This document shows, one piece after another, positions 1-23,103 of a stretch of 32,000 bases of DNA. Position 1 is the stretch's first letter. Each line of letters opens with the position of its first letter. The position numbers and the translations under genes were made by a program. The stretch spans positions 30,001 to 62,000 of the forward strand of contig CAVRAI010000004.1 of assembly GCA_963718915.1 (NCBI GenBank), read 5' to 3'. Source of the DNA: an uncultured Chloroflexia bacterium (GTDB taxonomy: Bacteria > Chloroflexota > Ktedonobacteria > Ktedonobacterales > JADMIN01). The notes below the pieces were generated by a model that worked only from the letters and a program-made list of their open reading frames with translations, ran no database searches and was not told the origin of the DNA.

Positions 1-1005
1 AGGTCGCGCAACTGGGTCTGCTGGGCATGCACCTGGAGGGCTACGGCTGCGCCGGGATGAGTGCTGTCAGCTATGGGCTGGCCTGCCAGGAGCTTGAGGC
101 AGGTGATAGCGGCCTGCGCTCATTTGTCTCGGTGCAGGGGTCGCTGGTAATGTACCCGATTCATGCGTTCGGCTCGGAGGAGCAGACGTCAGAAGTATCT
201 GCCGAAGATGGCGAAAGGCGAGCTGATTGGCTGTTTTGGCCTGACCGAGCCGGACTTTGGCAGCAATCCCTCAGGAATGCGCACCACCGCGCGCAAGGAC
301 GGCGACTCGTATATCCTCAACGGCGCCAAGATGTGGATCACCAACGGTGGCTTCGCTGATCTGGCCGTTGTCTGGGCCAAACTGGATGGCGAGATTCGCG
401 GTTTCATCGTCGAGAAAGGCACGCCTGGATTCACCACCAGCGATATTCATCACAAGCTGTCACTGCGTGCCAGCGTTACCTCTGAGCTGCACTTCGAGGA
501 GTGCCGCATTCCCGCGGAGAATATGCTGCCTGGCGTCAAGGGATTGCGCGGCCCGCTCTCCTGTCTGGATGAGGCGCGCTTCGGCATCGCCTGGGGAGTG
601 AATGGCGCGGCGCGCGCCTGCTTCGAGGCGGCGGTGGAGTACGCAAAAACACGCGAGGCGTTCGACCGCCCCATTGGCGGCTTCCAGCTTATCCAGGCGA
701 AGCTGGCCGCGATGGCGACGGAACTCATCAAGGCGCAGTTGTTGGCACTGCAGCTGGGGCGGCTCAAGGATCAGGGACAGGTCCATCCCGTGCAGGTCTC
801 CATCGCCAAGCGTAACAACTGCCGCGAAGCGCTCAAGACGGCGCGTGAGGCGCGCGGTGTGCTCGGCGCGAGCGGCATCACGCTGGAGTATCCGGTCAGC
901 CGCCACATGAACAACCTCGAATCGGTCTTCACCTATGAAGGCACCGACGAAATCCACACGCTCATCATCGGCCAGGCGATCACCGGGCTGAGCGCCTTCA
1001 ACTAA
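1..1005 (+). pseudogene. gcdH: Glutaryl-CoA dehydrogenase-type acyl-CoA dehydrogenase. The 5' end lies outside the window. The frame is broken by an apparent 1-nt insertion near 186.
   Basis: The frame of 3..185 reads [20 protein letters not shown]...[15 protein letters not shown]. The frame of 187..1005 continues [31 protein letters not shown]...KMWITNG...TYEGTDEIHTLIIGQAITGLSAFN with a TAA stop. Joined, this is a contiguous GCDH/ACAD sequence, and the shift is visible at base ~186. Confidence 0.8.
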
Positions 1006-2313: not shown

Positions 2314-4593
2314 TTACTCCTTCGCAAGTGGTAGCACTGTTACAATGCGCGTGCCACGACCTGGGTCTGATATGATGGCGCACGTCCCGCCAAGCTCCTC
2401 CGCACGCTCGCGCATCGAGACCAGGCCAACGCCTACCTGCCGCTCGTTTGCCAGTCCAACGCCATCGTCGGATATCTCCATACGTAGCGCGTTATCCAGT
2501 GCAAGAGTGATATGACATGTGTGCGCCTCCGCGTGCCGGACGATGTTGGCCAATGCCTCACACGCGATACGATAGGCGGCCACCTCCACCGCAGCGGGCA
2601 AGGGCTGGAAGTTGGTCGGCGCATCAATCGTAACGATGAGGCGCGTCGCTGGCCTGTCGCCGTCCGCGCTGCTCACCGGCATCTGGTACTGCGCGGCCTG
2701 GGCGCGTAACGCCGCCACCAGACCAAGCTCATCCAGCGCGGGCGGGCGTAGCGCGTAGACTAATCGACGAATGTCGGCCATGGCCGACTCGATCTCCCGC
2801 CCGAGTTCGCCAAGTAGTTGCGCGGCAACGGGGGGATCGCTGGTCAACATATTGCGAATGGCGCCGACCTTCAGCGTCATCCCCGCAAGCGTAGGACCGA
2901 TGCCGTCGTGCAGGTCGCGTCGAAGGCGACGGCGTTCCTCCTCGCGCGCCGTGACCAGCCTGGCGCGTGACTGTTGCAGATCAGCGGTCAGGCGTGTGGC
3001 ATGCACCGCGATACCTGCCTGATGGGCGATATCTTCCAGCAGGTGCTTGTCAGCCTCGGTGAACAGCTCGTCGGGCGCGCGCGGCGAGACACGCAGTTGT
3101 CCAACGGTTTCGCTCTGATAGACCAGCGGGAAGACGACAGGAACACCGATGGGCATACCATACTCGACGCTCGACGTGAACTGATCGCCTTTTTTGATGG
3201 CTATAGCGGCTGAAGGAAGCTTGAGCGCTTGAGCCACCGTCTCGACAATCGTTGGCAACACCGCCTCTGGCGCAAGCGTCGTCTCCAGCCGCCGCCCCAG
3301 ACGCGAGAGAACGGCATAGGGATTGTCGCGCTCGCCAAACATTATGCGATCAACGAGACGCTGGAGCCAGAACCGCAGGGGCTGAAATAGCACGGCGACC
3401 ACACCAGCCGCCACGAGCGAGATGAGCAAGTTGCCCTGCGCATGAAAGAGCATACCAAGCAGGCCGACGATCAGGATGTAGATGCCAGCGATGAGACCGC
3501 TGAGGCCGCCATAGACCAGCGTGCGGTTGAGAAGTGTGTCGATGTCGAAGAGATGATCGTGGAGAATGGCGATAGCTATCGCCACTGGCAATGGCAGGAC
3601 GAGCAATCCCAATGCGTTGGTACTTATTAATGGATGACCCAGGACAACCCCTGGGAGTTCCCAGAAGAGCAGCCCGGCGAGGCCGCTGACCAGACCACCA
3701 AAGACTACCCAGCGGATTTTTCTGCGTGATTCCGCGTCTCGGTTGCTCCGGTAGCTCCAGATAATCGCGGTGGTGATGGCGGCTACCAGCACGATCACGA
3801 GAATGTTCTCGGCCGCATTCGCCTGCCCAATCCACAAGAGCACCTTCGATGTCGTGAGGTACGTGGCCGACAAGTAGAATGCGTCGAGGATAAAGGGTGT
3901 CAGGTAGAGCGCCCAAATCCACCAGTGGCGCTGCTTCAGGAACGCAAAACGTCTTGGGTATATCAGGATGAAGTGCAATGATGCGATGTAAAAGAGAAGA
4001 AAGTCGACAGATGTCGTTGCCTTATAGAGCCAGAATCCGATCCCGCCAACCAGGTCGCTGAGTTGCATGCCAAATGTCCACGTCGTCGCGCCGAGAATGC
4101 CCGCCGCCGCAATGAGCAGCGCTAGCGCGGCTGGCTCTCCGGGTCGGCGCAGCACGATGTACAGGGCGATCAATACGAATACTAGCGCGAAGATGATGGT
4201 GCTCCAACCCTCCCGCCAGACACCATCGAGCGGGTAGGAAGCAAGGGTAACGGGGACATCCATGGTGACGCCACTTCGCTCGACGGTATAAGTGACTACC
4301 TGCCCGAATCGCCAATCCGGTCGGCTGGCTGAAGGATTGACGAGCGCATATGCCCAGGATTCCAGACTTTTGCCATCAATCGCTGTGACGATGTCGCCAG
4401 AGCGCAGCCCTCCTGGCTGAGCGCGCAGAACGGTCACGGCGACCCCGTTCGAGTGCCAGGGGCGCTGATTTGGGTCGACACGAGCGCCATCGGAAGGCGA
4501 GGCGATATGCAGCCAGACAAAGGCCACTCCCAATGCTACCATGGCAGCGGCGGCAAGCAAGACGATAACGCGGGCGCGGTCTGGCTGGCGCAT
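2314..4593 (-). CDS. Sensor histidine kinase (HisKA_3/HATPase_c) with an N-terminal PDZ-like extracytoplasmic segment, a polytopic membrane region and a GAF-like domain
   Basis: H-box RRRLRRDLHDGIGPTL. ATPase boxes EALANIVRHA, DDGVGL and GVGLVSMRERAEELGG. PDZ-like LRSGDIVTAIDGKSL. About 10 hydrophobic helices. ATG at 4593 is preceded by GGGAGGAG, so the track start at 4674 is probably too far upstream. Confidence 0.85.
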   Translation of the reverse strand: MRQPDRARVIVLLAAAAMVALGVAFVWLHIASPSDGARVDPNQRPWHSNGVAVTVLRAQPGGLRSGDIVTAIDGKSLESWAYALVNPSASRPDWRFGQVVTYTVERSGVTMDVPVTLASYPLDGVWREGWSTIIFALVFVLIALYIVLRRPGEPAALALLIAAAGILGATTWTFGMQLSDLVGGIGFWLYKATTSVDFLLFYIASLHFILIYPRRFAFLKQRHWWIWALYLTPFILDAFYLSATYLTTSKVLLWIGQANAAENILVIVLVAAITTAIIWSYRSNRDAESRRKIRWVVFGGLVSGLAGLLFWELPGVVLGHPLISTNALGLLVLPLPVAIAIAILHDHLFDIDTLLNRTLVYGGLSGLIAGIYILIVGLLGMLFHAQGNLLISLVAAGVVAVLFQPLRFWLQRLVDRIMFGERDNPYAVLSRLGRRLETTLAPEAVLPTIVETVAQALKLPSAAIAIKKGDQFTSSVEYGMPIGVPVVFPLVYQSETVGQLRVSPRAPDELFTEADKHLLEDIAHQAGIAVHATRLTADLQQSRARLVTAREEERRRLRRDLHDGIGPTLAGMTLKVGAIRNMLTSDPPVAAQLLGELGREIESAMADIRRLVYALRPPALDELGLVAALRAQAAQYQMPVSSADGDRPATRLIVTIDAPTNFQPLPAAVEVAAYRIACEALANIVRHAEAHTCHITLALDNALRMEISDDGVGLANERQVGVGLVSMRERAEELGGTCAIISDPGRGTRIVTVLPLAKE

Positions 4594-4791
4594 GGTCTCC
4601 TCCCTTCCCACGATGCGACGGCGGAAAGTCGGGTGGGAAGACAGGCGTGATCTACGGCATGTCAAGTCTCCCAATTATAGCCCGTTCTGAAATGTGGCGT
4701 GTAGGCATCGCCCGCGCTGGGTAGGATTGCCGATGCACAGCTTATTGCGCGGACTAGCATGCCGGCGCGCCACCATCCGCTCGGACATGCG

Positions 4792-4827
4792 CCTATGACG
4801 CCTATGACGCCTATGACGCCTATGACG
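4792..4827. repeat. Perfect 9-bp tandem repeat (CCTATGACG) x4
   Basis: Read directly: four contiguous copies at 4792-4800, 4801-4809, 4810-4818 and 4819-4827. The repeat overlaps the TAG stop (4820-4822) of the membrane-protein gene. Confidence 0.95.
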
Positions 4828-5470
4828 GCAGCAGCAAGACGATGCCGAAGACAAGGGGTATCAGGTGATGCATTATCGGTAAAGCGTCGCGCGTGATCGC
4901 GAGGATGACCAGCCCCGCCACGCTGTAGATGATGGCTGCCCAGCCCAGCCAGTGCGGCAGCAGATTCGTCGCGAGGATCGCCCCGCCAAAAGCCAAAATC
5001 CCGCCAAAGGCGAGGATGGTGAAGATCACAAACATGGCCCAGGTCCATGTGCTGAGCGCAGTGTAGACATCTGGGACGGCGCCTTTCGCCCCCAGTTCTT
5101 TCCCAGCCCAGGGATGAACCGTAAGGCGCTCCGTCAGATGGATGACCCATAGTACTGCGCCGACCGCGAACGCCAGTAGTCCCACAACTGAGAATCCGGG
5201 GTCGCCAGCAGCTTGTAACAGTCCCGCGAGCAGGCCAAGCCCGAACAGCGTCACCAGTATCGCGCCGATGAATGAGATGGTCGCCCAGAACCACGGACGC
5301 GGATGCTCATGGACAAGCCGTAGCCACTCGTGCGGCGGCTGCCCAAAGATGATCGGCCCATGCTTATCTTTCACGACCATGTAGAGCGCAATGCCTGGGA
5401 TGAAGACGATAGGCAGCACCAGTACGATACCTGTCACATGAAGGGGCGTCCACATAGTGTAGTCGTTCAT
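4820..5470 (-). CDS. Polytopic membrane protein, function unknown
   Basis: Long ORF with at least 6 hydrophobic helices. The likely start is MNDYTMW at 5470. Its C-terminal LLPHWLGWAAIIYSVAGLV segment resembles the two downstream membrane paralogs. Confidence 0.6.
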   Translation of the reverse strand: MNDYTMWTPLHVTGIVLVLPIVFIPGIALYMVVKDKHGPIIFGQPPHEWLRLVHEHPRPWFWATISFIGAILVTLFGLGLLAGLLQAAGDPGFSVVGLLAFAVGAVLWVIHLTERLTVHPWAGKELGAKGAVPDVYTALSTWTWAMFVIFTILAFGGILAFGGAILATNLLPHWLGWAAIIYSVAGLVILAITRDALPIMHHLIPLVFGIVLLLPS

Positions 5471-5566
5471 AAAGGTGCCTTTCTGAAGCCGCCGAGGCAA
5501 TAGCGATGACGAAGCCTGGCTCAGTGTCCGCGATGAATAAGCGCGGAGACCAGAATGCCTGTCATC

Positions 5567-5962
5567 CTACCGCACGACCACCGTCAGATTCATCGCGGGA
5601 TGGATGCTGCACGTGAGCTTGTAGGTTCCGGGAGTAGCGAATGTCACCTCTTTGGCAGGATCGCCGGGGTTCATGGTAAAGCCATCGCCCGTAAGCGTCT
5701 GCGGGCCTTTTGCCGCCGTATCGCATGTGCCGTTTGCGCCCAGGCAGATGGTGTGCGGCCCGCCGATTCCCACTGGGTCGGTGAACTGCACGGCCTGTCC
5801 CGCTTTGATGGTTACGCTGGTGGTGCTAAAATCCCCCGCGGCCATACTTACCTCATTAGCGGCGGTCGAGCTTTGGCCACATGCGGCAAGCCCCAGCATC
5901 AGGACTAGCATGAGGAGCAAGGGCGCAAGCGAGATGAGCGAGGATGTGGTATGGAGTCTCAT
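5567..5962 (-). CDS. Cupredoxin (amicyanin/plastocyanin-like blue copper) lipoprotein
   Basis: Signal peptide with lipobox LGLAAC. Type-1 Cu ligand motif C-S-I-H-P-A-M near the C-terminus, plus an upstream His (GGPHT). RBS AAAGGAAA. Confidence 0.75.
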   Translation of the reverse strand: MRLHTTSSLISLAPLLLMLVLMLGLAACGQSSTAANEVSMAAGDFSTTSVTIKAGQAVQFTDPVGIGGPHTICLGANGTCDTAAKGPQTLTGDGFTMNPGDPAKEVTFATPGTYKLTCSIHPAMNLTVVVR

Positions 5963-7494: not shown

Positions 7495-8499
7495 CTACAG
7501 TTTCAGGAGCGCCATGCCATACACTGCTGGGAACTGGAATGCGAGTTGTCGCCACGTGTCGCCGTAATCTGGACTATGCCAGACCTCGCCATTCCGCAAT
7601 CCGGCATAGACGTGGCCAGATACCGCAGGATCGGTCAACAGCGCGTAGGGCATGGCATTCAATGGCTGCGGCAGTCCACCGGATAGTCGCTGCCAGTCCG
7701 CGCCTCCGGTTGAGCGGAAGATGGCGGCCTGGGCGTTGGCCGCGCTATGCGCCTTCATGGGGCCAGGTGATAGCGACGCATACCAGACCTCAGGATGGTC
7801 GCGATCCGCGGCCACGGCCCAGCCATAGTGCCGGTCGAGTCCCGCGCGTGGCTGTGTCCACGTTGCGCCTGCATCGCGGCTGACCGCCACTCCCGCGCCC
7901 GTTCCGCCGCCTTCATAGACCCAGTCTTTGTGGAATGGGTGGTATGCCAGCGAGTGGCAGTCGCGTAGCGCGCCACGCCGATGTCCGCTCCATGTCTTCC
8001 CGCCGTCCGCGCTCCGCACCACCGCGCCAAATTCGATTCCCGCGATGACGACGTGCGGGTCGTATGGCGAGAGGGCAAGCGCCTGCACATAGGCGGAGAA
8101 AGGCTTCTCTGCTGGTGAGAACCAGAGCCAGCGCGAGCGAATGCGGCGGAAGCTTGTGAGTTCTTCCCAGTGCGCGCCGCCATCACGCGAGACATAGATG
8201 CGTGCGGGTTTCGTCCCCGCGTAGACCGTCCCTGGCGCGGCGTGACTGACGGCAAGCGACTTGACGATGCTCCCATCCAGCCCCGACGGCAGCCACGTCT
8301 GACCTCCATCGTCCGAGCGCAGCACGCCAGCCCCCTGGACGCCAGCATAGACGATGTTGGGGTGCGCGGGGTCAGCCGTGAGGCAGCGAACATCCTGGTG
8401 GGCGAGACTCACCTCGACCGTCCATGCTCCGTCCATCTGTTGCGTCATGGCCCGGGCGACACCGTGGTCGGTCATCGCGAGCAAGACCATCTGGGGCAT
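7495..8499 (-). CDS. BNR/Asp-box repeat beta-propeller protein (sialidase/Ycf48-like fold), no signal peptide seen
   Basis: Five Asp-box motifs: SDDGGQTW, SRDGGAHW, SADGGKTW, SRDAGATW, SPDYGDTW. RBS AGGAG 8 nt upstream. Confidence 0.8.
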   Translation of the reverse strand: MPQMVLLAMTDHGVARAMTQQMDGAWTVEVSLAHQDVRCLTADPAHPNIVYAGVQGAGVLRSDDGGQTWLPSGLDGSIVKSLAVSHAAPGTVYAGTKPARIYVSRDGGAHWEELTSFRRIRSRWLWFSPAEKPFSAYVQALALSPYDPHVVIAGIEFGAVVRSADGGKTWSGHRRGALRDCHSLAYHPFHKDWVYEGGGTGAGVAVSRDAGATWTQPRAGLDRHYGWAVAADRDHPEVWYASLSPGPMKAHSAANAQAAIFRSTGGADWQRLSGGLPQPLNAMPYALLTDPAVSGHVYAGLRNGEVWHSPDYGDTWRQLAFQFPAVYGMALLKL

Positions 8500-8614
8500 A
8501 GGGTTAGCTCCTGTGGATTTGCGTCCAGAGCATAGGTGGACGCATGTAATCGCTGTCTGACGTCAAGCCTACCCGTCTCTATGTCCTGTTGTCATGGGGC
8601 AGCTGTCCCGAGGT

Positions 8615-8637
8615 TTGTCCCGACTATACCGGGACAA
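8615..8637. promoter_or_regulatory. Perfect 8-7-8 inverted repeat, candidate operator in the divergent BNR/recQ intergenic region
   Basis: TTGTCCCG (8615-8622), ACTATAC, CGGGACAA (8630-8637). An extra direct half-site TGTCCCG lies at 8604-8610. Confidence 0.35.
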
Positions 8638-8761
8638 GGCGTTACAAATTCACCGGTAGCCCGTTTCTTAAGACATCATCGCGTCATCTGGCTGGCGTGG
8701 TGGAGAGTGTGCTCTCAACATGCGTGTACTGGCTCTTGCGCGCTGCACGGGAGGATGGCAT

Positions 8762-10826
8762 GTGACGACAGCGTATTCCTTGCTCAAAACAATGCTTGGT
8801 GAAGATGTCTCATTTCGTCCGGGACAGGTCGAAGCGATTGATGCGCTCGTCACACGGCGAAGTCGCGCGCTGGTGGTGCAGCGGACTGGTTGGGGTAAGA
8901 GTTTAGTGTATTTCATCGCCACCAAACTCTTGCGCGAGGCAGGCGCCGGGCCAACGCTTCTCGTCAGCCCCTTACTCGCGCTCATGCGTAACCAGATTCA
9001 GGCGGCGGAACGCATTGGTATTCGGGCGTTGTCACTCGCGAGTGACAACGTTGATGATTGGCCGCGCATTGAGCGAGCGCTTGAGCGGGACGAAGTTGAC
9101 ATCCTGCTGGTTTCTCCTGAGCGCCTCGCGAATAGACGTTTCACGACTGGCGTTCTGCCCACACTCGCAGGGGGAATCGGGCTGGTCGTTGTCGATGAGG
9201 CGCACTGTATCTCTGACTGGGGACATGACTTCAGGCCCGATTATCGCCGCATCGTAAACATCGTGAAGCGTCTTCCGCGGAATGTGGCGCTTCTGGCCAC
9301 AACAGCGACAGCGAATGAGCGCGTGGTGGCGGACATTGAAACGCAACTCGGCCCGAACCTTGAGATCCAGCGTGGCCCGTTAGCCAGAACATCCTTGCGC
9401 CTCCAGCCAATAACTCTTGCGGATCAGGCCGAACGATTGGCGTGGCTCGCGCAGAATATACCCCGATTACCGGGTACAGGTATTATCTATTGTCTGACGA
9501 TATCTGATTGCAAACACGTGATCGCAATGGCTGGCAAGTCAAAACATCGATGCGCCAGCCTATCATAGCCAACTTGACGCAGCGCAACGACAGATACTCG
9601 AACAACGATTACTCGACAATGATGTTAAGGCGCTCACCGCAACGATAGCTCTCGGCATGGGTTTCGACAAGCCTGATTTGGGTTTTGTCGTCCATTTCCA
9701 GCGACCCGGCTCTGTTGTGGCGTACTATCAGCAGGTGGGTAGAGCGGGGCGCGCGGTGCAAGATGCGTATGGAATCCTCTTACAGGGCAGGGAAGACGAT
9801 GACATTCACGACTACTTCATTCACTCGGCGTTTCCTTCGGCAGAGAATACAAAGCTCATCCTATCCATCATCGAGCAGGCTGATACAATTCCGCTCCGTG
9901 AGATCCTGTCCCAGGCCAACTTAAGCTGGGGCGTCGTAGAACGCATCCTCAAGCTCCTGGAGATTGACGGCGCCATTGTCCGAGACAATCGCATCTATTA
10001 CCGCACAACGAACCCCTGGCGACCGAACACGCTGAAGCAGGAACAGGTAACTATGAAGCGCATGGTAGAGCTACAGCGTATGCGGGCGTTTATGGGCTAT
10101 GACGGGTGCCTCATGGAATACATAGCGCACGAATTAGATGATCCGTACGCGGCGCCGTGTGGCCGCTGTAGCAACTGTGTGGGCGATTTCGTCACGCCTT
10201 CGGTCACCGCGCAGGCTGTTCAGGAGGCTCTCGCCTTTTTGAAGCGCGAGCATCAGCCAATCGCGCCGCGCAAGCTATGGACAGGTGACGTGGTCGGATT
10301 TCGTGGAATGATCAAGTACAGTTTGCGGATCGAAGAGGGGCGCGCGTTGTGTCAGTATGGCGACCCGCTCTGGGGTCGACTGGTAGAGCAGGGCAAGTAC
10401 ACCGACGGCCAGTTTTCCGAGGAGCTTGTTGATGCGGTAGCCCGTTTGATTTCAGAATCGTGGCGACCTGATCCGATGCCCACCTGGGTGACGTCAGTGC
10501 CGTCATTACGGCGCCCAGAACTTGTTGCCGGGTTCGCGAGAAGATTGGCGTACAGGCTCAACCTTCCGTTTTATCCCATCATCATCAAGAACAGAGACAC
10601 GCCGCCGCAAAAGACGATGCAAAATAGCCAGCATCAGGCGCGAAACGCCCTGGAAGCATTTACTGTGCAACAGCCTGTTTCGCATGGCCCAGTGCTTTTG
10701 GTGGATGATATTGTGGACTCGCGCTGGACGTTGACGGTATGCGGTGCGAAACTACGTGAAGCAGGCAGCGGACCAGTATTCCCTGTAGCGCTTGCTGTGG
10801 CCAGCGCGGGAGGACTTCGAGATTGA
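8762..10826 (+). pseudogene. recQ: RecQ-family ATP-dependent DNA helicase fused to a C-terminal ComF/phosphoribosyltransferase-like domain. The frame is broken by an apparent 1-nt deletion near 9525.
   Basis: Helicase motifs TGWGKS, DEAHCISDWGHDFRPDY, LLATTATA, then YHSQL..VKALTATIALGMGFDKPD..QQVGRAGR. RecQ Zn finger CGRCSNC. C-terminal VTSVPS...VLLVDDIVDSRWTL. The frame of 8720..9568 reads ..CKHVIA and the frame of 9525.. continues QWLASQNIDAPAYHS. GTG start at 8762 follows GGGAGGATGG. Confidence 0.85.
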
Positions 10827-11273
10827 CACACGAAACGCTGACAGCCGACGCCGAGGTGATTCTTCTGTGTTGCTCGCAACTCGCAATACCCAGGAAGCCC
10901 TCTCAAACGACTGGCGCTCCCTACTCGGCGCGCGAGTGGACTGAACTCGCCAGAAAGATCCATGCGTTATCTCAGCGACCAGGAGCGTTGCTGAGTGGCA
11001 ATACGGCTGATTTTCAACGTACACTCGGACTCTCAGATGCGGAAGCGCTTCGCCTCACCTCGCTTTTAAGTCGCGGTGGGCAGCTCGCCATGGAACGGAC
11101 ACGCTGGCCAACAGAGTATCTGGGGCATACTCGCGCCGAAGGGGCAACGTTGCCGGAGTGCGGCTGTGTACGTTGTACGTCTCATGTGTCTCGCTGTGAT
11201 AGGCGTGGGCACGGAACTGGCACGACTGGCGGCGGCATCATGTGACGCCGAGAGAACAGAGGGGTGGTCTCGG
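10823..11273 (+). pseudogene. DprA-like (DNA-processing protein) remnant: the N-terminal domain is retained, and the Rossmann domain is frameshifted and truncated
   Basis: AEVILLCCSQL...REWTEL...PGALLSG...LGLSDAEALRLTSLLSRGGQLAME fits my recollection of N-terminal regions of RecQ-associated DprA proteins (not checked against any sequence). SIWGIL, TRAEGATLPE and LAVIGVGTE occur in different frames. The ORF ends after about 140 codons, whereas full DprA proteins are typically far longer. Confidence 0.4.
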
Positions 11274-11621
11274 ATGAGATTCGCATTGCGAACCGTGGCT
11301 CTGATTATCGGAGTCATCGGATTTGTCATCGGATTGATCGTAAACTTTGCCTATTCGACGTTCCATTTCATTGGTGACATGATGGGCGCCGATGTCCGCC
11401 AATCACATGGAGTCATTGGATTCCTGGTGCTGGTGCTGGGCGTGATTGGGGCGCTGCTGGCGCCGTTCACCGCGTTGGTCGCGGCTGTGATCATGCTGGT
11501 GGTTGCCATCGCGTTGTTCTTTATTCTCCACTGGGCGGCGCTCCTCGTAAGCCCGTTCTTCATTGTCGCGGCTATCCTGGCGTTTCTGGATCGCCCGTCT
11601 TCGCGCACTGCCAGCACGTAA
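11274..11621 (+). CDS. Small membrane protein (3-4 TM), function unknown
   Basis: ATG at 11274 follows GAGGGG. Hydrophobic sequence with repeated GVIGF/GVIGA motifs. The track N-terminal extension from 11076 is DprA-remnant sequence. Confidence 0.55.
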   Translation: MRFALRTVALIIGVIGFVIGLIVNFAYSTFHFIGDMMGADVRQSHGVIGFLVLVLGVIGALLAPFTALVAAVIMLVVAIALFFILHWAALLVSPFFIVAAILAFLDRPSSRTAST

Positions 11622-11669
11622 ACGGTACGCGAAAAGCAGCGCCCTCTCACTTCGGGCTGAACGCGGAAA

Positions 11670-11707
11670 CGTCCGGGCTTGCAATAGGTTAGCCCGGACG
11701 TGTTTTT
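11670..11707 (+). terminator. Rho-independent terminator between convergent genes (A-tract upstream, possibly bidirectional)
   Basis: CGTCCGGGCT (11670-11679) pairs with AGCCCGGACG (11691-11700): perfect 10-bp stem, 11-nt loop, then TGTTTTT. Confidence 0.8.
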
Positions 11708-11759
11708 CCCAAACTCCCCGTCCGTGGATTGAGTGACAGGACGTATCGCGGCATCACGA

Positions 11760-13847
11760 CTAATCAGGTGAGAATGATGGGTCGGACAACGGGATTTTGA
11801 ACCAGAAAGTAGATCCCTTGCCGGGCGCGCTCACGACACCAACCTCGCCGCCGTGGCGTTCGACGATGGTCTTGCTGATAAAAAGCCCCAGACCCAGCCC
11901 TGGCCCTGATCCAGTCTGGCGCATGATGCCGTTGACACGGTAATAGCGTTGCCAGATCCGTTCCTGGTCTCCCAGGCTCAGTCCGGGGCCAGCATCCCGC
12001 ACTTCATAGCGCGCACAGGTTCCCTCGACGCACACGCGCACTGCGACTGACGTTTCAGGCTCTGAATATTTGATGGCATTCGAGAGCAGATTGTCTGTCA
12101 CCTGCACAAGGCGATCCGCATCTGCCCACACTGGCAGCGGATGGTCGGACGCTGAAAAATGTATCGCACGCCCAGGATTCGTAGCCTGTTGTTCGTCTGT
12201 GCTGTCGCGCGCAACAGCGACAAAGTCGCACGTCTCGAAGCGGAAATCCAGCTCGCCGACATCTACGCGTGAGAGATCTAGCAGGTCGTTAATCAGACGT
12301 TCCTGGCGTTTGAACTGCCGGTTGGCTCGTCCCAGCAGGTCGCGCGCCCGCTTCAGACTCTGGGCAGACTCCGTGTATATTGCCGCTTCCTCCGCGTCTG
12401 GAGGCGCAGCGCCTTCTGCCCGCAAAAGGCGGTCGAGCAGTTGCATGACGAAATTCACATTGAGTTTTGCGCTCGTTATAGGAGTGCGCAATTCATGTCC
12501 AGCGATCGAGAGAAAGTCATCCATCTGGTGTTTGGCTCGCTCGGCGGAGAGCGCTTCGGCACGGGCCTCGGCTCGCTCGCGGGCGAACCGTTGACGTTCC
12601 ATGACCACCCCTATTAATTGGGCAGCGGCATGAGCGAGCGCGCGATTCTCCGGGGTGTAGTCATCCGCGCTATCGCCGAAGTTGGCGCCGAAGTAGCCGG
12701 TAAGTGCGCCTGAGGCAAGCATCGGTGACATCAGGAAGTAGCGCCGCGACAGGAGCGTGGCCGGATGATCGGGGCTAACGCTCTGCACGTCGAAAAGAGC
12801 CGACTCGCCTGCCGTAAGCGTTGCCTCGACCTCAGCGCCAAAGCGGTCTGCGAGGTTGAGTTGGCCGAAGCTGGCACGGAACTTACGCTCCCTCCGGGGC
12901 GTACTGTCAGACACCGCGATGGGCCTGAGCCAGCCAGTTTCCGGGTCTATGCCGACGATGGTAATACGCTCGCACCCGAGAATACGGCTGCAGAGCGCGG
13001 CTAACTGATGGATAGGCTCATCTTCCTGTTGCTGCAAAGCCGTGAGGGCATCCTCAGCATCCTCAGAATCACCTGAGTCCTCGGAATCATCCGCATCTTC
13101 CGCGAGATCGACGGACACAACCGGGGTACTTACCATTGCACCCGCAAGTTCGAGCATGGTATCGAGCGCTTCGCGCGTGCGCTCTGTCTGGTGTTCGCGT
13201 TGCGACCAGATCTCGCGCTCCCTACGGTAGAGCAAGGCCCGGTCAACGGCGAGCGCGACATACTCCGCCACGTGTTGGAGCAGCGCAATTTCCTGGTTTG
13301 TGAAGAGATGTCGTTCAGCGGTACCGATATGCAATACACCAAGAAGGCGCTCGCCAGCCAGCAGTGGCACGCCGACCGCCGAGAGTATGCGCTCGCCCAG
13401 GAGCGGATTGACGGCATCGAATTCGGCGAGATTGGGGACAGAGAGTAGATGGCGAGAGGCCGCGATCCGACCGGCGAAACCCTGTCCGATGGGAACACTG
13501 ACCTTTCCTACAACCTCTTCTTCGAGTCCATGCGCCGCGTGCAGGAGCAGGTGCTGTCCGTCGGGGGAGACAAGGAGAATCGCCACGTTATCCACGCCCA
13601 TGAGATCCTTGATTGGGTCAAGCAGAGCAGGAAGAAGTGTGGCGAGATCCAGATGCGCAATGGCGGCCTTGAAAAGCGCCTGGCTCAGGTGCAGCTCGCG
13701 AACCAGGAACTGATCGTCAGTGGGAGGAGTCGGCGCTCCATCGGGTACGTGAACACTGGTGACGTCCGCATGCGCGTCATCTGACCGAACTTGCCCGGGC
13801 TTCTCGGTCGGACGACGGTGCGCGCGACGACTGTTCGATTGAGACAT
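11760..13847 (-). CDS. Sensor histidine kinase with tandem GAF-like domains (HisKA + HATPase_c), soluble
   Basis: H-box SIAGHELRTPITS. N/G boxes LLSNAIKYS, DAGPGL and GPGLGLGLFISKTIVERHGGEVGV. Acidic linker DADDSEDSGDSEDAED. Confidence 0.85.
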   Translation of the reverse strand: MSQSNSRRAHRRPTEKPGQVRSDDAHADVTSVHVPDGAPTPPTDDQFLVRELHLSQALFKAAIAHLDLATLLPALLDPIKDLMGVDNVAILLVSPDGQHLLLHAAHGLEEEVVGKVSVPIGQGFAGRIAASRHLLSVPNLAEFDAVNPLLGERILSAVGVPLLAGERLLGVLHIGTAERHLFTNQEIALLQHVAEYVALAVDRALLYRREREIWSQREHQTERTREALDTMLELAGAMVSTPVVSVDLAEDADDSEDSGDSEDAEDALTALQQQEDEPIHQLAALCSRILGCERITIVGIDPETGWLRPIAVSDSTPRRERKFRASFGQLNLADRFGAEVEATLTAGESALFDVQSVSPDHPATLLSRRYFLMSPMLASGALTGYFGANFGDSADDYTPENRALAHAAAQLIGVVMERQRFARERAEARAEALSAERAKHQMDDFLSIAGHELRTPITSAKLNVNFVMQLLDRLLRAEGAAPPDAEEAAIYTESAQSLKRARDLLGRANRQFKRQERLINDLLDLSRVDVGELDFRFETCDFVAVARDSTDEQQATNPGRAIHFSASDHPLPVWADADRLVQVTDNLLSNAIKYSEPETSVAVRVCVEGTCARYEVRDAGPGLSLGDQERIWQRYYRVNGIMRQTGSGPGLGLGLFISKTIVERHGGEVGVVSAPGKGSTFWFKIPLSDPSFSPD

Positions 13848-20514: not shown

Positions 20515-21010
20515 TCAGCGATGACGGCTTTCTGGCGGAAGGGGTGGGATTCGAACCCACGGTCGGGGTAGACACGTCAACGCCTCACTCGACTCGACCT
20601 GGTACTCATAGTCCCGACTCAAGCGGCGCAGCCCGCTCCACCAGGCAAAGGTGCGCTCGACAATCGACCGATGCGCTTGCACGGCAAAGGTGCCTTTGGG
20701 CTGGGTGTCCGACCGCTTGACGATCTCCACCTCCCAGCCCAGTTGATCCCGCAGTTCGTCCGCGAGTGGCCCGCTGTAGCCAGCGTCCGCCCAGACTTTA
20801 CGCAGGCGTGGGAACGCCGGTCCATAGGCCTGGAGCGCGTGGGCTACCAGCGGCGCGCCGTCGCGGTCCTGGACATCGGCCGCCGAGACCACCACCTTGA
20901 GCGCAAAGCCCAGGGTGTCCACGAGCAGATGGCGTTTGCGTCCCATCACCTGTTTGTGGGCGTCGTAGCCGCGAAGGCCCCCCTTTGACTGGTCTTGACC
21001 GACTGACTGT
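20515..21010 (-). pseudogene. IS5-family transposase orfB (DDE domain). It is reached by a -1 frameshift at A-AAG-GGG, and its C-terminus is replaced by read-through into the tRNA fragment.
   Basis: KGGLRGYDAHKQVMGRKRHLLVDTLGF...VWADAGYSG...IVERTFAWWSGLRRLSRDYE. The last ~20 codons (TCLPRPWVRIPPLPPESRHR) are translated tRNA sequence. Confidence 0.75.
20533..20580 (-). pseudogene. tRNA 3' fragment (T-arm, acceptor 3' strand, G73, encoded CCA). The 5' half is absent and the isotype cannot be determined.
   Basis: The minus strand reads GTGGG-TTCGAAT-CCCAC-CCCTTCC-G-CCA, ending at 20533. No complementary GGAAGGG acceptor 5' strand lies within 90 nt upstream, where IS-derived sequence abuts instead. 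Confidence 0.6.
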
Positions 21011-21387
21011 CCAAGATTGCCGCACTCGGCGTCGCCTCCCGCCCCAGCCGCTTGCGCGCCTGGTCGCGAATCGCGTTGTGGATCTGTTCCCAGGTTCCGT
21101 CGTTGCGCCAGTGGCGAAAGTAGTAGTAGGCGGTCTGCCAGGGGGGCAAGTCGTGCGGCATCGCGCGCCATTGGTTGCCGCCCTGTACGACATAGAGAAT
21201 CGCGTTGACGATCTCACGTCGGCTATGGCGCGCCGGGCGTCCGCCCGACTTGATCGCGGGTACGAGCGGCTCCAAGATGGCCCATTCGCCCTCACGCAGA
21301 TCGCTGGGATAGGGCTTGCGGCTTGGTGGTCGTGGCTGTTTCATACCTCCAATCTACCATACCTGCGCATCTTTCAAAACGGTCTCT
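20578..21387 (-). mobile_element. IS5-family (IS427-like) insertion sequence, truncated at the transposase 3' end
   Basis: orfA and orfB have typical IS5 motifs. The candidate terminal sequence GAGACCGTTTTGAAAG is the reverse complement of 21372-21387. Transposase homology stops at ..RDYEYQVESSEAL, about 20-30 codons short, and no second inverted repeat is present. Confidence 0.7.
20946..21344 (-). CDS. IS5-family transposase orfA (HTH/DUF4096-like N-terminal part)
   Basis: YPSDLREGEWAILEPLVP...RREIVNAILYVVQGGNQWRAMPHDLPPWQTAYYYFRHWRNDGTW...AILDSQSVKTSQ. Confidence 0.85.
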   Translation of the reverse strand: MKQPRPPSRKPYPSDLREGEWAILEPLVPAIKSGGRPARHSRREIVNAILYVVQGGNQWRAMPHDLPPWQTAYYYFRHWRNDGTWEQIHNAIRDQARKRLGREATPSAAILDSQSVKTSQRGAFAATTPTNR

Positions 21388-22945: not shown

Positions 22946-23019
22946 CCCCGACAGCGGTTTAGCAAACCGCCGCACTAGACCTACTATGCGACCCTTCCGT
23001 ATGGCGCCAAGGCAATAGG

Positions 23020-23103
23020 TGCCAAAGGGGGGACTCGAACCCCCACGCGCGTACGCGCACAACGCCCTGAACGTTGCGTGTCTACCAATTCCACCACTTT
23101 GGC
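23020..23103 (-). tRNA. tRNA-Leu (anticodon CAG), type II with long variable arm, CCA not fully encoded
   Basis: The minus strand reads GCCAAAG-TG-GTG-GAATTGGTAGA-CAC-G-CAACG-TTCAGGG-CGTTG-TGCGCGTACGCGCG-GGGGG-TTCGAGT-CCCCC-CTTTGGC-A. All stems pair, and U33 and G37 flank CAG. Confidence 0.9.

Follow-up and report, generated by a model that had tools for sequence, protein, structure and literature searches.

PsyrTA has been described as a toxin-antitoxin pair (Sberro 2013, as represented in papers that cite it) and as an anti-phage defence system (Millman 2022 preprint). Its toxin, also named RqlH, has been characterized as a genotoxic PRTase-helicase that is held in check by its partner (PMC4670107). 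Members include psyrTA of Pseudomonas syringae, rqlHI of E. coli ExPEC, and the RqlH helicase of M. smegmatis. An intact PsyrT joins a RecQ-like 3'-5' helicase to a C-terminal PRTase domain, the PRPP-binding pocket of which confers genotoxicity (SOS induction and filamentation). The translationally coupled downstream gene encodes PsyrA, comprising an N-terminal helical region and a DprA/SLOG Rossmann domain, often with an HTH, and binding of PsyrA to PsyrT neutralizes the toxin. Phage infection is in turn proposed to release the toxin with an abortive-infection-like outcome, a step that has been deduced in the literature.

Two other systems invite comparison. A DprA plus PRTase defence pair has been described from P2/P4 hotspots (PMC9122126), and the sequence-only reading of the DNA studied here was right to draw a link to it. 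In ShosTA, a pair of this kind, toxicity of ShosT requires PRPP binding (PMC12961424), and ShosT is reported to couple PRTase with pyrophosphatase activity (PMC11961720). PsyrTA and ShosTA both consist of a PRTase-fold toxin and a DprA-like antitoxin, but ShosT has no helicase. The second system is the competence trio ComFA/ComFC/DprA, the comparison of which with RqlHI was already made in the discussion of the 2015 paper (PMC4670107).

Here, we analyzed a locus in a 32,000-nucleotide stretch of DNA (the window) from an uncultured Ktedonobacteria-like member of the Chloroflexota. Our results suggest that the locus is very probably a decayed copy of a two-gene PsyrTA (RqlHI) toxin-antitoxin or anti-phage module that was acquired horizontally by this genome and that would be non-functional as sequenced.

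Identity of the locus and architecture of psyrT

The features of the locus, all on the forward strand, are as follows (motifs were placed by their motif coordinates).

8638-11102, + strand: segment missing from three syntenic relatives, reaching from the region ahead of psyrT through psyrT itself to the psyrA stub (compared with L083, L084, and L085 by blastn and local alignment)
8749-8755, + strand: Shine-Dalgarno-like GGGAGGA, 7-13 nt upstream of the psyrT GTG (direct sequence reading)
8762-9519, + strand: 5' part of psyrT, RecQ-type helicase lobe 1 (Pfam DEAD, E 5.7e-23)
8885-8902, + strand: Walker A motif TGWGKS of psyrT
9194-9205, + strand: DEAH motif of psyrT
9520-9520, + strand: +1 frameshift in psyrT, one extra base (exact base ambiguous within ~9517-9527)
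9521-10826, + strand: 3' part of psyrT, comprising helicase lobe 2, wHTH-like segment, zinc module, and PRTase-fold domain (Pfam, PADLOC PsyrT, AlphaFold2, Foldseek)
9729-9752, + strand: motif VI QQVGRAGR of psyrT, in helicase lobe 2
~9843-10007, + strand: wHTH-like segment of psyrT (weak wHTH matches, residues 375-429)
10107 and 10158-10178, + strand: four-Cys zinc module of psyrT (Cys at 10107, CGRCSNC at 10158-10178; from the sequence)
~10185-10823, + strand: PRTase-fold domain of psyrT (model, Foldseek, profile searches)
10692-10730, + strand: putative PRPP loop of psyrT, VLLVDDIVDSRWT
10823-11102, + strand: psyrA stub, antitoxin codons 1-93, N-terminal helical region (PADLOC PsyrA, our own PsyrA HMM, tblastn)
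11103-11245, + strand: read-through tail of the stub ORF, not derived from psyrA (matches intergenic DNA in L083, L084, and L085)

Two ORFs, 8720-9568 and 9657-10826 (the latter open upstream to 9522), are the halves of one gene, psyrT, which starts at a GTG at 8762 and stops at a TGA at 10824-10826. The frameshift was located by three-frame translation and by alignment with homologues after removal of a single base. Dropping one base at ~9520 (CACGT[G]ATCG) yields a continuous frame of 687 codons encoding 687 aa. Across the junction the repaired protein reads DCKHVSQWLASQ where homologues read DCKRVSQWLERQ, co-linear and gap-free, and the GTG start agrees with homologues aligned from that position. 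Pfam and NCBIfam domain scores for psyrT refer to a first repair with the frame starting at 8720.

The repaired protein matched the PADLOC PsyrT model (PDLC03928) over profile positions 7-685 of 689 (E 2.3e-277, 919.9 bits). Intact pairs scored 950 bits (PsyrT) and 374 bits (PsyrA) in the comparator locus L001, and 1019 and 577 bits on an E. coli plasmid. More than 8000 homologues of ~690 aa share 46-74% identity with psyrT, and homologous genome loci number at least 599 across many phyla. Of 82 homologous loci, 75 have a PsyrA with a DprA domain directly downstream of PsyrT, where the 4-bp overlap often recurs, so that the adjacency predicted for such fusions and a DprA-like gene is indeed conserved; PsyrT occurs without PsyrA at 7 of ~80 loci. 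PsyrA homologues also match the ShosA profile (E 4.5e-21 to 2.7e-28). On these sequence grounds the locus is assigned to PsyrT/PsyrA, also called RqlH/RqlI, a system that is already known and published; the suggestion that a RecQ-based fusion of this kind is functionally uncharacterized is therefore incorrect.

All four parts foreseen for the protein were recovered, namely the helicase core, the zinc module with its four Cys, the winged-helix-like segment, and the PRTase-fold domain. This is the full-length toxin architecture of PsyrTA/RqlHI, in which a RecQ-like helicase and four-Cys zinc module are followed at the C-terminus by a PRTase whose PRPP loop reads VDD..D (acidic loop DIVD663 in E. 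coli RqlH), and the gene order and the 4-bp overlap onto a PsyrA-type partner are likewise the same. The locus differs from described members in its host, in an antitoxin limited to the first 93 codons without the DprA domain, in a toxin reading frame interrupted by a +1 frameshift, and in its isolated position in conserved backbone, away from any defence island.

The helicase core is that of a RecQ-family SF2 enzyme with intact Walker A, DEAH, and motif VI, a Helicase_C match at E 1.4e-13 (Pfam), and a score against TIGR00614 (recQ_fam) of 243 bits that exceeds the cutoff of 219.8. This score, together with the annotation of homologues as 'RecQ family ATP-dependent DNA helicase', would also be expected of a housekeeping RecQ recombination or repair helicase that was broken by a frameshift. 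However, the equivalog model TIGR01389 reached only 289.5 against a cutoff of 640.2 and covered the helicase core alone, NF008279 reached 206.8 against 1015, and Pfam detected no HRDC domain, the place of which is taken by the PRTase domain. The full-length PsyrT match, the absence of the gene from syntenic relatives, and a base composition atypical for the window also speak against this explanation, which the domain architecture and the vacant site in relatives already rule out in effect.

Strong secondary PADLOC matches were obtained with DpdF, the helicase of the 7-deazaguanine Dpd DNA-modification/restriction system; several models matched the helicase core and two short models the C-terminal region. 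These reached at most 293 bits, compared to 920 for PsyrT, the NCBIfam DpdF equivalog scored 141 against a cutoff of 550, and no other dpd genes are nearby.

RecQ_Zn_bind (PF16124) fell short of its gathering score of 25, with 20.8 bits; none of the four Cys is missing, and their columns are nearly invariant among 62 family members. The catalytic motifs of psyrT are all intact. Among 200 columns with at least 95% conservation, psyrT departs at four, which is normal for the family.

The C-terminal domain and the comparison with competence proteins

The Pribosyltran profile (PF00156) matched the C-terminal domain of psyrT weakly, with 16.6 bits in the Pfam scan of the repaired protein. In a comparison across the PsyrT family it matched 18 of 26 members, with a best E of 2.7e-8, and psyrT itself scored 19.2 bits, below the gathering score. 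A single-sequence search of the PDB with this domain returned nothing significant, and a profile was needed to recover PRPP synthetase (1.8e-4) and PurF. An AlphaFold2 model of the domain (pLDDT 90.6) retrieved PRTases with Foldseek at probability 1.00, including APRT. ShosT (8zvb/8zvd; TMq 0.49-0.55, identity 11-12%) was among the best structural matches, and H. pylori ComF (7p0h) was matched at TMq 0.50 and 14% identity. As modelled, the domain is a PRTase fold with a predicted PRPP-binding acidic loop, which bears out the ComF/PRTase-like fold proposed from the sequence.

The ComF match raises the question of whether the locus could be a competence-type module for DNA uptake or processing that works on incoming ssDNA as a RecQ-based equivalent of ComFA/ComFC/DprA. 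The resemblance extends to a Cys-rich zinc module before the PRTase-fold domain, an SF2 helicase, and a partner in the DprA superfamily, a weak GntX/ComF match was found in NCBIfam (E 4.9e-4), and the analogy has been discussed in print (PMC4670107). However, ordinary PRTases and ShosT score equal to or higher than ComF in the structural comparison, and the GntX model in question (NF008616) gave 19.6 bits, far under its cutoff of 304. The helicase of psyrT is RecQ-type whereas ComFA is DEAD-box-like, and the helicase, zinc, and PRTase parts are fused in one toxin in PsyrT. Published experiments with PsyrTA document toxin-antitoxin behaviour and phage defence rather than transformation or DNA uptake, the E. 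coli plasmid pair lies within a type I R-M operon, no competence genes were found near psyrTA, and the module is missing from close relatives. A competence role is thus very unlikely, and the portrayal of the locus as a RecQ-scaffold analogue of the competence trio holds as a domain analogy only and does not speak for a competence function.

The psyrA stub and the empty site in relatives

The end of psyrT overlaps by 4 bp (TTGA) with a 140-aa ORF that starts at a TTG at 10823. PADLOC PsyrA matched this ORF at profile positions 3-89 of 398 (E 1.5e-9) and our own PsyrA HMM at positions 3-94 of 420. In intact PsyrA the DprA domain (PF02481) begins at residue 97. Across all frames of 10700-12100 we detected neither PF02481 nor any PsyrA signal beyond ~11102-11113 (the latter with our HMM over this interval and with tblastn). 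The truncation of psyrA is real: three quarters of the gene, with the whole DprA domain, are gone. The overlap with a DprA-family partner that had been proposed for this position was therefore found, but what remains of that partner is the PsyrA-specific N-terminal helical region and not a DprA domain.

The deletion endpoint falls at the domain boundary and leaves the coupled start in place. The deletion would have taken all of psyrA past codon 93 and fused the stub directly to ancestral intergenic DNA, such that 93 psyrA-derived aa are followed by 47 codons of intergenic read-through. No Pfam family matched the 140-aa ORF with an E of 1 or below. A single-sequence model of the stub comprised four helices at pLDDT 67 and gave no significant match in a fold search, and the N-terminal PsyrA profile found nothing in the PDB below E 0.078. 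A downstream 'QQSIWGIL' was considered as a psyrA remnant (consensus 'GIWV') and rejected as a chance resemblance in ancestral intergenic DNA that is common to relatives without psyrTA.

Three syntenic Ktedonobacteria relatives (L083, L084, and L085; 80-84% nucleotide identity) do not encode psyrTA, and in the closest of these, L083, 78 bp stand in place of 8638-11102. The GC content of this segment (0.563) is the lowest among all 2465-bp windows within the 32,000 nucleotides, and its GC3 is the lowest in the window. A BNR-repeat gene and a small membrane-protein gene flank the site, which is a divergent intergenic region; the membrane-protein gene, at 11274-11621 directly after base 11273, where the sequence-only reading ended the locus, is the next gene and encodes an unrelated 115-aa protein. 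PADLOC identified no defence genes among ten neighbouring genes, the only matches being generic HTH/receiver ones for a response regulator. Because the segment is absent from three relatives and has the lowest GC content, and because the DprA domain is missing, we conclude that this copy of psyrTA is horizontally acquired and decaying; it lies outside any defence island.

Around the two segment ends, 8638 and 11102, we searched for terminal repeats and target-site duplications and recovered only short two-copy repeats, including D1 (17 nt, 88% identity), one copy of which is inside the start of the BNR gene, and this junction search yielded no evidence of a transposon or integrase mechanism. 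Microhomology (GCTGGC) at the right junction is possible and unproven. Predicted promoter and terminator sites in 8450-11400 were no more numerous than in shuffled sequence. tRNA and Rfam scans of the window identified only a tRNA-Leu at 23018-23103, far from psyrTA.

Status of the frameshift and decay of the module

As sequenced, the module would be non-functional because psyrA carries the deletion and psyrT the +1 frameshift, which falls between the two helicase lobes. The sequence-only reading held that both genes are damaged. This is certain for psyrA; the psyrT frameshift is present in the sequence and could be an assembly indel. Specifically, a second +1 frameshift, an extra A at ~186, interrupts a housekeeping gene for acyl-CoA dehydrogenase that is 97% conserved and has an intact orthologue in L083, and related contigs bear names in the style of long-read assemblers (contig_NNNN). 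Hence the extra base in psyrT may stem from the assembly, and the toxin gene would then be intact.

If so, the locus would encode an intact, solo RqlH-type helicase-PRTase alongside the 93-aa PsyrA stub (140 aa with its tail); the stub may be enough to bind or tame PsyrT, or the cell may tolerate PsyrT without a partner and use it in DNA repair. Aside from the frameshift, psyrT is undegraded, and the solo PsyrT loci noted above suggest that a helicase without its partner is not necessarily lethal. psyrA is also split in the closest homologous contig, the N-terminus of RqlI is required for neutralization (PMC4670107), and the cut at a domain boundary with retention of the coupled start is consistent with a stub that has been kept. 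However, 15 other syntenic genes are free of frameshifts, which argues for a low indel error rate, and the stub terminates in read-through codons of intergenic origin. Moreover, E. coli RqlI 1-250 complements only partly, full activity needing the DprA-like region, and no activity was demonstrated for RqlI constructs that lack the DprA/MoCo-like region (PMC4670107). We regard this alternative as possible yet doubtful. Should the frameshift prove artefactual, the locus would be a natural experiment in which the host puts up with an intact PsyrT while retaining nothing of PsyrA but its 93-residue N-terminal helical domain. This reading is improbable; were it true, that domain would probably be the minimal PsyrT-binding and neutralizing module, and the DprA domain a dispensable sensor part.

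The preferred reading remains that of a decayed PsyrTA copy, and the proposal that the module is being lost is corroborated by the deletion of the DprA domain of psyrA. Loss of the antitoxin would be tolerable only with a toxin that is inactive or harmless in the host, a state that a real frameshift would supply, and the decay of psyrTA is as expected if a cell can afford to lose the antitoxin only after the toxin has been disabled.

The locus adds little new biology in itself, given that a RecQ-PRTase helicase with a DprA-like partner is an established system in PADLOC and DefenseFinder-type catalogues and that this copy is degraded. It does provide a clean example of the gain and decay of a defence or toxin-antitoxin module, with an empty site in relatives, atypical GC content, an antitoxin cut at a domain boundary, and a toxin that is apparently frameshifted. 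The documented host range of PsyrTA now includes Ktedonobacteria-like Chloroflexota.

Reading frame and family of the helicase gene

Two plus-strand ORFs, 8720..9568 and 9657..10826, are pieces of one gene, psyrT, which encodes an RqlH-type toxin combining a RecQ-like helicase with a C-terminal PRTase domain. The second ORF is open upstream to 9522, the frame switches at ~9520 inside CACGT[G]ATCG, and removal of one base yields an uninterrupted 687-codon frame. Across the junction the repaired protein reads ...IIYCLTISDCKHVSQWLASQNIDAPAYH... and is gap-free and co-linear with ten homologues (...DCKRVSQWLERQ...), which indicates that the lesion is a +1 insertion. The start at 8762, the length of ~688 codons, and the overlap of the stop with the start of the next ORF (TTGA, 10823-10826) had been correctly recognized in a sequence-only reading. 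The features of psyrT are:

8762, + strand: GTG start codon, preceded by GGGAGGA
10692-10730, + strand: PRPP loop VLLVDDIVDSRWT, intact
10824-10826, + strand: TGA stop codon

In PADLOC, the repaired protein was recognized by the PsyrT model over its full length (positions 7-685 of 689, E 2.3e-277, 920 bits), and the downstream 140-aa ORF matched the model of the DprA-like antitoxin PsyrA (E 1.5e-9) only at profile positions 3-89 of 398. More than 8000 proteins of ~690 aa are 46-74% identical to the repaired protein, and relatives are encoded at no fewer than 599 genome loci in many phyla. Of the 82 PsyrT-family loci examined, 75 encode PsyrA immediately after the helicase gene, two of the 75 being cut by contig ends. 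PsyrA was not detected within the 1.1-3 kb covered downstream in the other seven (L019, L038, L044, L054, L069, L073, and L074), three of whose contigs end after ~1.1-1.4 kb; the RqlH-type helicases of these loci stand alone, and several come from Actinomycetota or Chloroflexota MAGs. An intact homologous locus, L001, encodes a 688-aa PsyrT and a 413-aa PsyrA that overlap by 4 bp, with PF02481 at PsyrA residues 97-295. Another intact pair, on a conjugative IncF plasmid of E. coli (NZ_OX030731.1, 33367-43469), is nested in a type I restriction-modification operon between hsdS and hsdR; its genes carry the annotations ‘RecQ family ATP-dependent DNA helicase’ and ‘DNA-processing protein DprA.’

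A RecQ-PRTase helicase with a DprA-like partner is thus already known, and PsyrTA and RqlHI are one well-described system. PsyrTA was initially reported as a toxin-antitoxin pair, and its role in anti-phage defense was described afterwards; its antitoxin is DprA-like and its toxin carries a PRTase domain (preprint of Millman et al., 10.1101/2022.05.11.491447, citing Sberro, 2013; Russell & Mulvey, 2015). When present alone in E. coli, RqlH induces the SOS response and filamentation; this toxicity lies in the PRTase domain with its PRPP pocket (DIVD663), and RqlI binds and neutralizes RqlH; M. smegmatis RqlH does not need its PRTase domain for helicase/ATPase activity (PMC4670107). The same study drew the parallel to ComFA/ComFC/DprA, and Rousset et al. 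linked a P2-hotspot DprA-PRTase pair to shosTA, psyrTA, and rqlHI (PMC9122126). The architecture and decay described in the sequence-only reading stand, whereas its proposals of an uncharacterized RecQ-based version and of a competence function do not.

Domains of PsyrT

Pfam identified DEAD (E 5.7e-23) and Helicase_C (1.4e-13) domains, weak winged-helix matches at residues 375-429, and subthreshold RecQ_Zn_bind (20.8 bits, all four Cys present) and Pribosyltran (16.6 bits) matches. Among NCBIfam models, TIGR00614 assigns the core to the RecQ family (243 bits, cutoff 219.8); neither the RecQ equivalog (289 vs 640) nor the ComF/GntX model (19.6 vs 304) was reached. A profile of the C-terminal 213 residues, built from 26 family members, had no PDB matches other than PRPP-binding enzymes (PRPP synthetase, 1.8e-4; PurF, 2.7e-3), and PF00156 was matched by 18 of the 26 C-termini (best E 2.7e-8). 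The AlphaFold2 model of this region (pLDDT 90.6) was matched in Foldseek by PRTases at probability 1.00, among them APRT, H. pylori ComF 7p0h (TMq 0.50), and the ShosT toxin 8zvb/8zvd (TMq 0.49-0.55). The modeled C-terminus is therefore confirmed as ComF/PRTase-like at the level of fold, as had been proposed.

Antitoxin truncation and the empty site

An HMM for PsyrA, constructed from 57 of 73 extracted downstream genes (those of 330-480 aa), matched the window only at positions 3-94 of 420 (nt 10829-11113), with no further signal in six frames of 10700-12100; tblastn agreed on this extent. The DprA domain is completely lost and an N-terminal helical region is left, which sequence profiles and a low-confidence model both failed to tie to a solved fold.

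Synteny explains where this homology ends. Three related contigs with 80-84% nucleotide identity, L083 (1.65 Mb), L084, and L085, were found via a neighboring BNR-repeat protein and placed in Ktedonobacteria by matches named Ktedonobacteraceae and Thermogemmatispora. They share the gene order of the window from acyl-CoA dehydrogenase to X-Pro peptidase and lack psyrTA entirely; 8638-11102 (2465 bp) occupies the place of 78 bp in L083, the closest relative. PsyrA homology stops at the right junction, 11102/11103; beyond it the 140-aa ORF reads on for its last 47 codons through ancestral intergenic DNA. At 0.563, the GC content of the insert is the lowest of equal-sized windows (mean 0.610, minimum 0.575), and its GC3 is low as well. 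Given the empty site and this atypical composition, we conclude that psyrTA was horizontally acquired into a divergent intergenic region and that the 3' three quarters of psyrA were then lost. No mobile-element signature was found flanking the segment, nor were defense genes found near the locus.

The insertion starts right after a conserved cluster of GTCCCG motifs (8603-8637) with a hairpin (TTGTCCCG...CGGGACAA, 8615-8637), which lies in this divergent intergenic region, is common to all three relatives, and may have a regulatory role, for instance as an operator. Elsewhere, 4649-5568, between HisKA_3 kinase and cupredoxin genes, spans ~920 bp (~205 bp in L083); within it are a perfect tandem repeat of 9 nt (CGCCTATGA x4.2, 4790-4827) and, on the minus strand, two ORFs (4662-5294, 4820-5500) that overlap each other and had no Pfam or PADLOC match. 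The window did not align with L083 past 18899. An upstream ORF (20798-21295) overlaps, in a different frame, a minus-strand DDE_Tnp_1 transposase ORF (20515-21171, E 1.9e-20), an arrangement reminiscent of IS elements with two ORFs, and tRNA-Leu(CAG) (23018-23103, minus strand) was the sole RNA gene detected.

Origin of the frameshift and state of the locus

The truncation of psyrA cannot be a sequencing artifact; the psyrT frameshift might be one, introduced as an assembly indel. Frameshift aside, psyrT is off-consensus at only 4 of 200 columns with ≥95% conservation (72nd percentile of 116 intact homologs), and every catalytic motif is intact. The acyl-CoA dehydrogenase gene (3-1005, plus strand) likewise carries a disruptive +1 insertion at ~184-187 (CAG[A]CGT, ~186; CAG[A]CGTCAG in the window vs CAG-CGCCAG in L083), and its product shares 93-97% identity with the intact 407-aa L083 ortholog, a pattern that points to possible assembly indels. 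Judging by their names, the contigs may stem from long-read metagenome assemblies. In L002, a 5.4-kb ENA contig with the closest PsyrT homolog (74% identity), psyrA (4239-5217) is likewise split, into 36-aa and 305-aa ORFs by a frameshift near codon 20, reflecting either another decaying copy or an assembly indel. However, 15 other syntenic genes are unbroken, and a disabled toxin is expected where the antitoxin has been deleted. On balance, we lean slightly toward a genuine lesion in psyrT.

Whether or not the frameshift is genuine, the locus is a PsyrTA remnant. Its family assignment, domain folds, conserved gene pairing, antitoxin truncation, empty site in relatives, and atypical composition are supported directly by the present analysis. 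PRTase-dependent genotoxicity, neutralization by direct binding, and phage defense are known from the literature on other PsyrTA members. Toxin inactivation may have permitted, or come after, loss of the antitoxin, and the locus is probably non-functional at present.
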